NCBI GenBank assembly: GCA_038227875.1
Contig: JBBRPR010000009.1
Span: 1 to 64,000, forward strand
Direction: 5' to 3'
DNA length: 64,000 nucleotides
From: Planctomycetota bacterium
GTDB lineage: Bacteria; Planctomycetota; SZUA-567; H5-PLA8
Shown in pieces: positions 6,001 through 9,000 of the stretch. How positions within the stretch are numbered: the stretch's first letter is position 1; each line of letters opens with the position of its first letter. Made by a program: the position numbers.

Positions 6001-9000
6001 CATCACTCATCAATCGCCCATCACGTGATCGCGTAGCACGAAACCACCTCCCAGTAGCAATCGCTCATTCGTGCTCATTTACGCTCATTCCTGCTCAAAC
6101 ACGCTCATTTTGAATCATTCCTGCTCATTCGCGCTCATTTGCTCTCATTTGCTCTCATTCCTGCTCAAATTAGCTCATCCACCAGATTTCCCTTGATTTT
6201 CAGTGTCGAGAGTTGCTTTATATATAAGGGCACTTTTCACACGACCAATCGAGTCCTCGTCGCTTCCCGATACGGGACATGCGCCATGCGAACTGAAAGA
6301 CAAAATTCTCATAACTCTATAATTTAAAAAATACTTAACTTTTATACACAAATATTCAAGATATTACTTGACTTTTGCATTTCTCAACCGCATAGATATG
6401 TAAAGGAAATCCACAAACCCGCACCACCGCCCAAACGCCCCAGTCTTTTATTACTGCAACCGCACATCCTATCTGCCAGGAAGCCCTCCCCATGAACACC
6501 CCATCCCCAGGCGCACCCACGCCCGGCGCCATCTTGCTCCATTCACAAGTCAGGGTGCCACCCGTCTCGCCGTTGAGACGGGTGCCTGCCCTGAGCATGT
6601 CGAACGGGCGAGAGACGCGCCGCGTTTGCAATTTGGCCCGCAGTTGTGTGCCACTGGTGGCTGGCCGTAAAGCCACCAGTGCCGACCTCGCGAACAAATC
6701 CCGCCCGTCCGAGTCGCCACCCATCGCGCAAGGCGCCCCCGGCCGGGAAGGCCGCCCGTCAATAGCCGAGGGCGGCAGCCCTCGGTCCGGCCGACTCGGA
6801 TGCCCCGCGCCCTGAAAGGGCGCCCGATTCCCGCTCAACCCTCGCCACGCGCCCAAGCACCAGCATGAACCGTAACCGCACGCGCCCCGCGTACTCAACC
6901 TCTCACGAACCATCCACTTGGATCCGTCCGCCCCCGCATTCCTCCACGCCCCGCCATCCGCCCTCGTAAATGAAAAATGCCCGATGCCCGATGCCCAATG
7001 ACTCCGTAACCGCTCTTTGACAACTCCATACGCCTCACAGCGGACCCCGAGCGCAACGCCGCGCCCGGCCAACCGTGTTGGGTCGTCGCATCCCTGCTCC
7101 GACCGGGCACCTTGGCCGGACGGTCCGCGCGGTACATCAGCGTTGTTGTACGGGAAAACAGTCCAACCCCCGAAACGCGTCGCATTCTGTCATATTTTGT
7201 CGCATTTACCTATGAAGGCGCTGTTGTACTTCAGCGCGAAAATCGAACCCAAATGTTGCCTCCGATCTGATCGCGCTCGGAATACAAATGGGATACAAAT
7301 GCAATTCCGTCGATCTGCCCCATGTTCATTCGCCCTGCCTCTGATATCCCTGTTCCCGGCGGACCGCAGAAATTTGAAAACTTTTTTCACCCCGGTCCAC
7401 GAAATTCCCCGTCGGTGTCGTACGGAGTGTAGAAAGAGGGATTCTCCACCAGTGTCGATTACGACCTCCTGCAACCAGATCCAGCGCGCCCACGAAGGCT
7501 CCGGCATTCCCGAGCAGTATTGGGAACTGGCCTCGCAGTACCGTGCCGAGCTGATTGCGCAGGCCTGCGGGATTCTCGGCAGCCGCGACGACGCGGAAGA
7601 CGTGGTCCAGGAAACGTTCTACGAAGCCTTCCGCGACGTCTCCAAGCTTTCCCCGGAATCCCTGGGCAGTTCCCTGCGCCTGATCAACCGCTCCAACGCG
7701 CTGGACCGACTGAAGACCCGCGGCCGGGCCCGGCAGCGCGATCAGCGGTCGATCACGCGCTCCTTCACCACCGGCGGCTTCAGCGGCATCGAGTTGCGTG
7801 AGACCGTCGAGGCCGCGCTGCTGACGCTGCCGGAAAATCTGCGCGCGGTCGTGCGGCTCCGCTACTTCGAACATCTCTCGTACAAAGAGATCTCCGAACG
7901 CTTGAAGATTCCCATGGGCGCCGTCGGCCCGCTGCTCTCGCAGGCCGGCCAGAAGCTCTACACCCATCTCGTGCCAACAGCACCTACCGACACCGGAACA
8001 GGAAACCCGTCATGAAAACGCCGCTCCAGACGCACGACTGCGATTTCGTCAGCGCCAACTTGAGCCCCTATGTCGAACGCCTGCTCGATTCGCGCGACGT
8101 TCAAGGTGTCGACGCGCACCTCAAGGAGTGCGGGACGTGCCGGCAGGAAGTGAAGAACTTCCGCGTCGTCCATCAGATCCTCGAAGACGTTCCCGCCGGA
8201 ATGGATCGCGAGCCGGAAGCGGAACTCGCCGCCGCCGGACCCAGCGCATGGGAGCGCTTCAGCGGCGCGCCCTGGTGGGCCGTCTCGCTGGCGCTGCATG
8301 TGCTCGTGATCGCGCTGGCCAGCATCGTCAGCATGGCCATCACGCTGCCCAACTCCGACGACGCCGTGGTGATGATGACCGAACTGCAGGCGCGTCCGGT
8401 CCTCCCCGAAGAAGAGAAGAAAAAAGTCGAACCTCCGGAAACAGCGCTGCTCTCGAAGAGAGACACCGAAGCCACCGATCCCACCTCGAAGGAAGCCAGC
8501 GAGATCACCGTGCCGCCGGACATCCTGGCCAAGGCCGAACTCGGCGACCATTTTGAAACCGTGAACCTCGATCGTCCCGACACCGCCAGCGCGTACGGCA
8601 ACGAAGACTCGAAGTCCTTCCACTCGGTCACCGGAAATGCGGAAGCTCCCGGCGGCGGCGGAACTGGCGGAGTCGGGATGGAAGATCTGATCGGCGTGGG
8701 CGGAGGCGGTACGCGCGGCACCGGCGGTGGTTTTGGCGGCGGAGATGGAACCGGCACGGGCGTGCAGTCCGGCGCGGGTCACGGCAGCTTCGGCAACCGC
8801 AACGGCGGCGGCCGACGCCTGATGGTCAAGAAGCACGGCGGCTCGAAGGCCACTGAATCCGCCGTGGACGTCGCGCTGCGCTGGCTGGCGTACCATCAGG
8901 AAGCCGACGGCCACTGGGACAGCATGAAGTACGGCGCGTCTAAAAAGTGCGACACCGCAATGACCGGCCTGGCGACGCTGGCCTTCCTGGGCGCGGGCAA

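Follow-up and report, generated by a model that had tools for sequence, protein, structure and literature searches.

A putative promoter and operator cassette with phased 10-bp repeat arrays, dispersed in one Planctomycetota genome

Organization of the cassette locus

The window analyzed here comprises the first 64,000 nucleotides of contig C9 in a metagenome-assembled genome (MAG) of a Planctomycetota bacterium, and all results rest on this one MAG (88% complete, 4% contamination). The element of interest lies at 6020..6440, on the forward strand, as do all the features described in this section. Upstream is a co-directional gene for a Kelch-repeat protein (3430..5583), and downstream are two co-directional genes (7017..9874), encoding an ECF-type sigma factor (7017..8015), the true start of which is probably later, followed by a zf-HC2 anti-sigma factor (8012..9874). 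The element is framed by REP-like hairpin repeats, arranged in a block with a left copy at 5638..5993 and a right one at 6539..6759. Families D5, D3, D2 and D4 occur in the same order in both, and the pieces are 85–93% identical.

The cassette opens with an upstream module (U, 6033..6060) consisting of two heptamer boxes, GTAGCAC-N14-GTAGCAA, whose starts are 21 bp apart and which end 2 bp before the array. The array itself (6063..6182) contains 12 head-to-tail decamers of consensus GCTCA(TT/AA)Y-NN, the last of which, GCTCATCCAC, is slightly degenerate. It is followed at 6183..6233 by a linker, CAGATTTCCC, equivalent to one more 10-bp step, and by a first promoter-like core (P1), CTTGATTTT-N14-GCTTTATATATAAGGGCAC. 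A weakly conserved spacer (6234..6300), over which BLAST coverage falls to 11–13 copies of differing sequence, leads to an AT-rich block (6301..6366) with 23% GC, compared to 59.6% for the genome. This block resembles an UP element, and directly adjoins the second core, P2 (CTTGACTTTTGCATTTCTCAACCGCATAGATATGTAAAGGAAA, 6367..6411; nhmmer E 3.7e-9, with an exact pattern match at 6367..6398).

Boxes similar to those of the U module (GTRSCAM; two or four, with starts 21/10/21 bp apart) precede most arrays in the genome, those on C2 and C8 being without them. The GTRSCAM pattern is unspecific by itself, with 38 matches in the genome versus 32 in the reversed genome, and only its fixed position beside the arrays counts.

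Array units and promoter-like cores

The initial annotation reported 20 arrays on 20 contigs, and none in the reversed genome, a count that I could reproduce. Looser patterns add arrays on C28, C53 and C90, for a total of 23 arrays on 23 contigs, of which 17 are complete, two consist of the upstream side only, and four of the downstream side only, at contig ends. The end of C32 and the start of C25 carry the same sequence. Because some arrays are split at contig ends, the number of distinct loci is 21–23.

P1 can be read in 22 arrays, and every one of their 219 decamers is in exact 10-bp register with its box. No indel is found in these units, compared to indels of 1–2 nt in the adjacent P1 −10 region. 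The units are of 39 types, yet the core of the decamer is nearly invariant (T3 in 219/219, C4 in 217/219 and A5 in 216/219), while position 8 is restricted to pyrimidines and position 9 is free (0.07 bits). Counted over the five promoter-proximal units of the 22 copies, 2 of 330 cells depart from TCA, while the remaining array positions show 112 departures in 770. Mixed unit types combined with a constrained core set these arrays apart from the uniform minisatellites of other genomes, and the pattern suggests a putative sequence-specific binder, not a minisatellite evolving neutrally. Of these signals, the invariant core weighs more than the absence of indels, because slippage alone keeps a 10-bp tandem repeat in register. 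Nonetheless, exact register with the box, absence of indels and invariant TCA all support the prediction that the array is a constrained binding platform.

At 10-bp intervals the arrays have ATT or AAA, phased with the box, and they are predicted to be curved. In a wedge model of six arrays, the ratio of end-to-end to contour length is 0.69–0.78, versus 0.96 ± 0.024 in shuffles, and is also far outside the range of genomic 120-mers; an A-tract control behaved as expected. The proposal that the units line up on one face of the helix holds only approximately, as a 10.0-bp period drifts against the 10.5 bp of B-DNA. Such a period fits wrapped or curved DNA better. This raises the possibility that no dedicated protein is involved, and that curved, AT-phased DNA acts as an extended UP-element-like enhancer of P1, through alpha-CTD or nucleoid proteins. 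I consider this rather unlikely: neither the invariant TCA nor the pyrimidine-only position 8 is needed for curvature, and runs of three A/T, as found here, are weak benders. In its favor, besides the predicted curvature and the phasing, the R1 parC site is likewise described as strongly curved (PMC2241845).

P1 is present after all 22 arrays with an assembled downstream side (the array on C102 is cut), in agreement with the earlier report of a module behind the array. From the last-but-one unit to the TTGATTTT box, the distance is exactly 20 bp in all 22 copies. The P1 box reads CTTGATTTT...TATATA, and the second core is found at 12 of 21 array loci. The 17-bp spacing previously given between TTGAYT and a TA-rich box was not recovered, the best TA-rich hexamer (TATATA) being at 19 bp. 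Similarly, the AT-rich module had been assigned to the array element, but it also occurs without arrays. A total of 68 promoter-like cores were identified at 41 loci, private to this genome, and 20 of these 41 loci have no array. The core pairs with three types of upstream module, namely the array, an AT-rich module, or a palindrome plus an AT-rich module, and its pattern has 28 matches in the genome against none in the reversed genome. The notion of a mobile cassette defined by its array therefore has to be modified: the promoter module forms a unit of its own within a larger family, in which one sub-family has the array in addition.

A sigma-70 consensus scan (TTGACA, 16–18-bp spacer, TATAAT) calls neither P1 nor P2, as stated before. 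A sigma-54 promoter was rejected by eye, for lack of the TGGCAC-N5-TTGC spacing. A T7-like RNA polymerase was considered as the cores end in CTATAGGAAA; its family PF00940 has no match in the source genome, nor in control genomes, which makes this negative uninformative. The sigma-32-type promoter is given as CTTGAA-N13-17-CCCCATNT in PMC4263515, and the core, written as CTTGAY-N15-CCGCWTAK, agrees with it in five of six positions of the first box, in most of the second, and in an allowed spacing. It differs in that the downstream genes are no heat-shock set, and that the motif is missing from the 19 other genomes of the order. In this MAG, which is 88% complete, no rpoH was found above the family cut-off. 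Neither the cassette nor the array has a match in Rfam.

Distribution, orientation and possible mobility

The element had been described as non-coding and absent from the 16 other genomes of the family, and both points are supported. A 3-unit pattern (≤2 mismatches) has 129 matches in the source genome and none in these 16 genomes or in 19 others of the order, and a 4-unit pattern has none in 400 sampled genomes of the phylum. In viral, genome and metagenome collections, no relative of P1 is among the matches listed, which are mostly uniform 10-bp minisatellites, and phage and plasmid collections gave no match. Independent assemblies, including those of a second study, show multi-copy depth across the array, and Logan contigs end within it. 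A joint that skips 5647–6580 was rejected as an empty-site allele, its sides being only 28 nt long and in a repeat.

For the array loci, the next gene is co-directional in 17 cases, opposite in three, and not called in one (15, 3 and 2 in the initial annotation); for the loci without arrays, 19 are co-directional and one is opposite. Over the whole family, a downstream gene is called at 40 loci, and 36 of these aim at its start (binomial p = 2e-7), based on my own, crude, GC3-based gene calls. A Pfam scan of neighboring ORFs agrees with the downstream genes being mutually unrelated. The distance from array loci to the next called gene has a median of 505 nt and a maximum of 1495 nt, and these long leaders, along with the three array loci facing the wrong way, count against the preferred explanation given below. 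With respect to regional GC skew, 37 of 42 cassette anchor points share one orientation, a pattern suggestive of spread or retention coupled to replication. The genome has two dnaA-like genes, with no clear skew switch by the one on C1.

An inverted-repeat scan (≥12 nt) over the 17 complete copies found no shared terminal repeat, as previously noted, with only the C9 copy having a 14-nt pair. Neither a transposase nor target duplications were found at the cassettes, whose borders are not sharp. In this they differ from MITEs and Correia elements, the latter having both terminal inverted repeats and target duplications. They are not REP or BIME sequences either: the array has direct repeats and no hairpin. 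The flanking repeats are of the hairpin type. The genome has four full Y1 transposase genes, and RAYT-type Y1 genes bordered by hairpin repeats lie elsewhere in it, which may or may not belong to families D2–D5. No binding-protein candidate was identified for the array.

The element could also be a selfish, functionless repeat, that is, a minisatellite hitch-hiking on a dispersed repeat, with orientation biases reflecting where insertions are tolerated. The failure to find mobility or binding machinery, the location of the cassettes within a REP-like mosaic in a genome with RAYT genes, a strand polarity compatible with insertion bias, and the existence of simple GCTCATT-type 10-bp minisatellites on unrelated metagenome contigs are all consistent with this. 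For neutral DNA, however, the constraint within units, the fixed junction to the box and the aim at gene starts are unexpected, and I regard this explanation as improbable.

The copy on C58 lies upstream of a prophage terminase-portal-capsid operon, at 103 bp from its first gene. This position supports the promoter reading, because a promoter is expected there. This copy, at the terminase and head operon, sits directly upstream of a protein predicted to have sigma region 2 only. ORF114, located between the array and TerL, looks like sigma region 2 in structure comparison, where the VIA match has a Z of 7.1–7.9, below the tool's caution line for helical proteins, and Foldseek gives weak matches only (E about 0.6). 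ORF114 has homologues, none of them found in a viral scan. It was rejected as a small terminase, having no similarity to the small ORF of a related phage, and no small terminase was identified.

It is conceivable that the arrays are tied to this phage-like element as a genome-wide switchboard, in which one polymerizing regulator, from host or prophage, would recognize the TCA decamers and co-control the late operon and about twenty host genes, with cassettes spreading by a replication-strand-dependent route. I view this as doubtful. If true, the cassette would combine an inducible promoter and its own cooperative operator in one mobile, self-contained unit, and phage and host regulons would be fused through its dispersal.

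A site derived from the phage itself is very improbable. The array would then be a track recognized by a small terminase for packaging (pac/cosB-like), or else it would serve the C58 prophage as a parC-like centromere, and the chromosomal copies would be pseudo-sites through which host DNA could be packaged or positioned. The C58 array, the one of 22 copies beside terminase genes, does occupy the usual place of cos or pac, and its architecture is like that of R1 parC, as far as described in PMC2241845. Yet ORF114 is sigma-region-2-like and not terminase-like, in a related phage whose TerL is 54% identical the small ORF is a different one and no such array is present, no par gene is among the scanned downstream genes, no match was found in phage and plasmid collections, and the P1 of C58 is the most divergent copy, so that transfer could run either way. 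Finally, an RNA-level role, with the array as a protein sponge or processing signal in the 3′ UTR of the upstream gene, which is co-directional at 10 of the 14 array loci where one is called, is the least plausible, since exact register with a downstream DNA box is meaningless in RNA, Rfam has no match to the array, and the upstream gene is divergent at the other four loci.

Related systems and a proposed mechanism

Binding sites of the OmpR/PhoB type and of lambda CII are head-to-tail repeats with a 10–11-bp period, which abut or straddle the −35 and whose proteins contact RNA polymerase. They comprise 2–6 repeats, and are conserved regulon sites of local origin, not copies of one cassette. 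The arrays are similar in their head-to-tail period beside a −35-like box, but have 8–16 units, in homologous cassette copies, and no OmpR/PhoB-like or CII-like regulator is linked to them. Plasmid and phage origins also have direct repeats by an AT-rich stretch; their iterons are usually 17–22 bp, beside a rep gene, in contrast to 10-bp units in ∼22 copies. A single copy per replicon is expected of such origins, and here there are 21–23 loci, with no Rep family among the neighbors.

R1 parC is described (PMC2241845) as a plasmid site with ten 11-bp direct iterons by a promoter, in two sets of five flanking it and followed by parM and parR; it is curved, acts as operator, and is bound cooperatively by about one dimer per iteron. 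The array shares direct repeats of ∼10–11 bp adjoining a promoter-like box. It differs in having a single upstream set of 8–16 units with a 10.0-bp period, in ∼22 chromosomal copies before unrelated genes, and no partition family was found in a Pfam scan of ORFs downstream of 17 array loci (C53, C90 and C27 left out).

Putative mobile promoters, like Correia elements and REPINs, are homologous non-coding sequences before unrelated genes in one genome, some with promoters (PMC3575422). Most families of putative mobile promoters are pairs, compared to at least 41 loci here, and a phased repeat array is described for none of these elements in that text. Nijveen et al. define them by ≥80% identity over ≥50 nt before non-paralogous genes, and blocks P1 and P3 show near-identity across >50 nt between loci that have unrelated genes; most cassettes lie beyond the −150 to −50 window given in PMC3575422. 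The best reading of the cassette is as a variant of both mobile promoters and parC/OmpR-type phased operators.

The anatomy of the cassettes, their register, constraint and copy distribution, and their orientation biases are directly observed. From these I infer promoter activity, protein binding and spread, and the element is best read as a putative lineage-private cassette of mobile promoter and operator. I propose, with moderate confidence, that the array loci (21–23) are one sub-family of dispersed promoter cassettes (at least 41 loci), which would have multiplied within the lineage by a route that leaves a single orientation relative to replication-associated strand asymmetry. The core, CTTGAYTTT-N14-GCWTAKATA, would be a promoter served by some sigma factor, and the 8–16 decamers a cis-acting operator or enhancer, the TCA of which would be recognized by a sequence-specific DNA-binding protein. 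This protein would bind in a head-to-tail row, with a unit every 10 bp, on DNA that is intrinsically curved. The exact register of the decamers with the −35-like box would bring the resulting polymer within reach of RNA polymerase, and it would turn P1, and with it the downstream gene, on or off.

A non-coding element in ∼20 copies, aimed at unrelated genes in one uncultured bacterium, looks like a putative spreading on/off switch. The strict 10-bp register with an invariant 3-bp core would make it a clean model of protein polymerization beside RNA polymerase. The strand polarity suggests that spread or retention is linked to replication, by a route not yet described, and the prophage copy suggests that regulatory DNA moves between phage and host. 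If promoter activity and a cooperative operator are borne out, an entire regulatory unit, rather than a promoter alone, would have been copied before unrelated genes, rewiring a regulon within one lineage.

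Anatomy of the cassette and constraint on its units

In the window, 12 head-to-tail decamers (consensus GCTCA(TT/AA)Y-NN) form the array at 6063–6182, followed by a promoter-like core, P1 (6183–6233 with its linker), and by a second core, P2 (6367–6411). Read in the orientation of the element, the order per copy is heptamer boxes, array, linker, P1, variable spacer, and an AT-rich block with P2. The heptamer boxes number two or four, read GTAGCAC, GTGCCAC or GTAGCAA with start spacings of 21, 10 and 21 bp, and are lacking in the copies on contigs C2 and C8. The linker after the array is invariable (CAGATTTCCC), and the P1 core reads CTTGATTTT-N14-GCTT(T)ATATATAAGGACAC. 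The variable spacer lies 3′ of P1, before the AT-rich block, which together with P2 is present at 12 of the 21 array loci.

With the TTGATTTT box as fixed point, counting back upstream in steps of ten yielded 219 units in 22 arrays with no indels. The single break, in the C8 array, is a unit that has degenerated (AACCATTTGC) but keeps its length of 10 bp. T occupies position 3 in all 219 units, followed by C at position 4 in 217 and A at position 5 in 216; positions 6–7 are TT or AA, position 8 is a pyrimidine without exception, and position 9 is unconstrained (0.07 bits), with 39 unit types overall. In the five units closest to P1, compared over 22 copies, the TCA core (positions 3–5) is off consensus in 2 of 330 cells, against 112 of 770 for the remaining array positions. 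This difference rules out homogenisation of whole units as the source of the pattern, which selection on a 3–5-bp core every 10 bp can produce. On C91, the final ~45 codons of a 600-aa ORF with an ECF-sigma N-terminus (14086–15888, minus strand) read through the array, and the cassette there seems to abut or replace the native 3′ end of that ORF.

Copies, distribution and the wider family of cores

The initial annotation counted 20 arrays, and the same regular expression again returned 20, with none in the reversed genome; looser patterns added arrays on C28, C53 and C90. Seventeen arrays have both flanks, those on C32 and C102 stop at a contig end, and those on C25, C53, C65 and C90 start at one. 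Because of these contig-end arrays, and because the end of C32 and the start of C25 are identical in sequence, the number of distinct loci is 21–23, all counts resting on a single fragmented MAG of an uncultured organism (9.34 Mb, 176 contigs, 59.6% GC, 88% complete, 4% contamination). Independent Logan contigs exactly match both flanks of the array in the window (3000–6091 and 6200–6581). Summed Logan contig depth is 283 in the array bin versus 13–19 in the flanks, and 33 versus about 2–6 in a run of another study; this measure is not copy number, yet it agrees with a multi-copy element.

The cassette is real and constrained, and was detected in none of the other genomes searched. A three-unit array pattern with at most two mismatches has 129 matches in the source genome and none in 19 other genomes of the order or in 16 other genomes of the family, from which the element had already been described as absent. 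A four-unit pattern has none in 400 genomes sampled across the phylum. The core pattern has 35 matches in the source genome and 0–1 in 19 other genomes, the level of the reversed-pattern control. The source genome is the sole one of its genus compared, and "private" here means not found in those searched. Collection-wide pattern scans gave, among the matches listed, simple minisatellites and no relative of P1, and nothing in the phage and plasmid collections matched. An unrelated high-GC metagenome contig (L369, 271–510) carries an intergenic 24-unit GCTCATT(T/C)C(C/T) array; the match is limited to the array, with no P1 after it.

The AT-rich module of the initial annotation exists, but it is not specific to arrays, being part of a larger core family that includes loci without them. 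P1, P2 and a third module, P3 (a GTGCAC...TGCAC palindrome with ATTATAAAATCTTTTTTACTAAAT), have in common the core CTTGAYTTT-N14-GCWTAKATA...RGAAA, for which a regular expression gives 28 matches, and none once the genome is reversed. A profile search returned 72 rows, of which 68 were retained (C7:113470, C27:10706, C18:110288 and C27:8530 were dropped, at E 1.5–2.9), and these 68 cores group into 41 loci, of which 21 have an array and 20 have none. Many no-array loci are core pairs ~300–400 bp apart, within a conserved ~1-kb composite of further repeat modules found upstream of at least 14 unrelated genes (e.g., C37:68291–69000 and C2:216261–216900). Towards its end, the composite has the motif AAGGAG-N8-10-NTG TAA, which may be a start-stop mini-ORF and which leads into three GTAACATT repeats. 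P1 is found solely beside arrays (22 of 25 rows of the P1 search; the other three are not P1, among them C65:28809, a seed included wrongly).

Genomic setting, strand polarity and surrounding repeats

By a crude GC3-based gene calling of my own (ORFs ≥80 aa), the next gene is co-directional at 17 array loci, opposite at 3 and not called at 1 (median distance 505 nt), in keeping with the 15 against 3 first reported. At no-array loci it is co-directional at 19 and opposite at 1, with a gene called at every locus (median 312 nt), so that 36 of 40 loci are co-directional (binomial p = 2e-7). The downstream genes are mutually unrelated, as originally described, and include thrS, tig, asd, HtrA-like proteases, a LacI-type regulator, glycosyltransferases, ECF sigma/anti-sigma pairs, Ser/Thr kinases and histidine kinases. 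At the edge of a 40%-GC island (C27:5000–10200; genome 59.6% GC), the C27 cassette is followed by a divergent integrase; the island begins directly after the cassette, with a 477-aa ORF of weak integrase similarity (tblastn E 4e-5).

A second bias, absent from the initial annotation, is seen in regional GC skew, taken over ±25 kb on the cassette top strand, leaving out the cassette. Each locus contributes a single anchor point (the array set has 22 anchors here, where the core clustering has 21 loci). The skew is negative at 19 of the 22 anchors with an array and at 18 of the 20 without, compared with 48% of 3,916 called genes. Because this bias is present on both flanks and in coding sequence alone, whichever the gene orientation, and because skew and gene strand are uncorrelated here (r = 0.06), the cassettes are polarised with respect to a strand asymmetry, most simply a replication-linked one. 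No origin was located in this genome, and the cassettes may face either with or against the fork. This polarity is the sole clue to the mechanism of spread. It recalls IS200/IS605 elements, which transpose as single strands into the lagging-strand template; nothing observed ties those enzymes to the cassette. As in the initial annotation, no terminal inverted repeats are common to the 17 complete copies, and no transposase lies near the cassettes.

The genome holds several REP/RAYT systems, and four full RAYT-type Y1 (IS200-like) transposase genes (C9:158303–158644, C72:36218–36556, C79:279–614 and C3:47816–48160) each have inverted REP-like hairpins on either side. Two copies of a REP-like hairpin-repeat block flank the window cassette, and REP/RAYT systems probably account for a large part of the hairpin mosaic surrounding cassettes. 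One hairpin repeat beside the window cassette contains a sub-threshold Rfam match to Acido-Lenti-1 RNA (6740–6785, minus strand; score 33.7 bits, gathering score 37, E 2e-5). A short repeat with (ATGCCCG)x3.4 at 6960–7000, with about 31–37 BLAST matches genome-wide, is another part of this intergenic mosaic. A 107-aa ORF (6492–6815, plus strand), with an AGGA-type RBS look, starts ~80 nt after P2 and traverses hairpin repeats. The C25 copy has the same first codons after its P2, and part of the leader before them is found in C2 as well; the ORF is probably non-coding.

The prophage copy and the proposed function

On C58, an array (10784–10903) and the most divergent P1 (score 21 versus 29–48) lie 103 bp before a 114-aa ORF (C58:10996–11340), followed on one strand by large terminase, portal, scaffold, major head protein and tail genes, a cluster present once in the genome. 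The cassette may have passed in either direction between phage and host. The 114-aa protein is one of a small group of related proteins some 110 aa long, with 20 representatives at E ≤ 1e-3; a member of 2157 aa has seven sigma-region-2-like stretches, and Sigma70_r2 is weakly matched by 10 of 17 aligned members (best E 7.6e-6). Its AlphaFold model (pLDDT 88) aligns best with sigma region-2 domains (Z 7.1–7.9, under the level at which the tool advises caution for helical folds; rmsd 2.5–3.7 Å over 69–78 residues), and Foldseek gave weak matches only. I read it as a putative sigma-region-2-only protein and not as a small terminase.

I argue that the shared core is a putative promoter, because of the gene-start bias, its recurrence under three upstream modules and the prophage location. 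It is not a textbook sigma-70 site, since the sigma-70 scan again calls neither box and the spacing is 19 bp, correcting the TTGAYT-N17-TA-rich boxes described at first. The core agrees rather well with CTTGAA-N13-17-CCCCATNT, quoted as a sigma-32-type promoter pattern in PMC4263515. However, no rpoH reached its cut-off in this 88% complete MAG.

That the cassette joins this promoter core to a head-to-tail protein-binding array is a prediction to which I give even chances. A protein would occupy the array head-to-tail at one site every 10 bp, as far as the polymerase, much as OmpR/PhoB-type regulators and lambda CII bind head-to-tail at −35 regions. Such a binder fits the invariant core of the array, the exact register of the array with the −35-like box and its predicted curvature (0.69–0.78 versus 0.96 for shuffles, with assumed wedge parameters). 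ParR also binds head-to-tail along the repeats of parC, according to PMC2241845. Against 10.5-bp DNA, the 10.0-bp period slips by ~17 degrees with each unit, which would make the complex wrapped or superhelical; the alignment on one face of the helix proposed at first would hold only approximately.

Action of the array by its predicted curvature or a UP-like effect alone is unlikely, and a functionless selfish repeat, against which the TCA-core pattern speaks, is equally so. A phage pac site or centromere is considerably less probable; a related viral contig (TerL 54% identical) lacks the array, and has an unrelated 155-aa ORF in place of the 114-aa one. Action at the RNA level is the least probable of all. 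The putative promoter core with its predicted binding array is best filed as a combination of mobile promoters, as described in PMC3575422, with a phased operator array, its function, binder and mobility all being putative.
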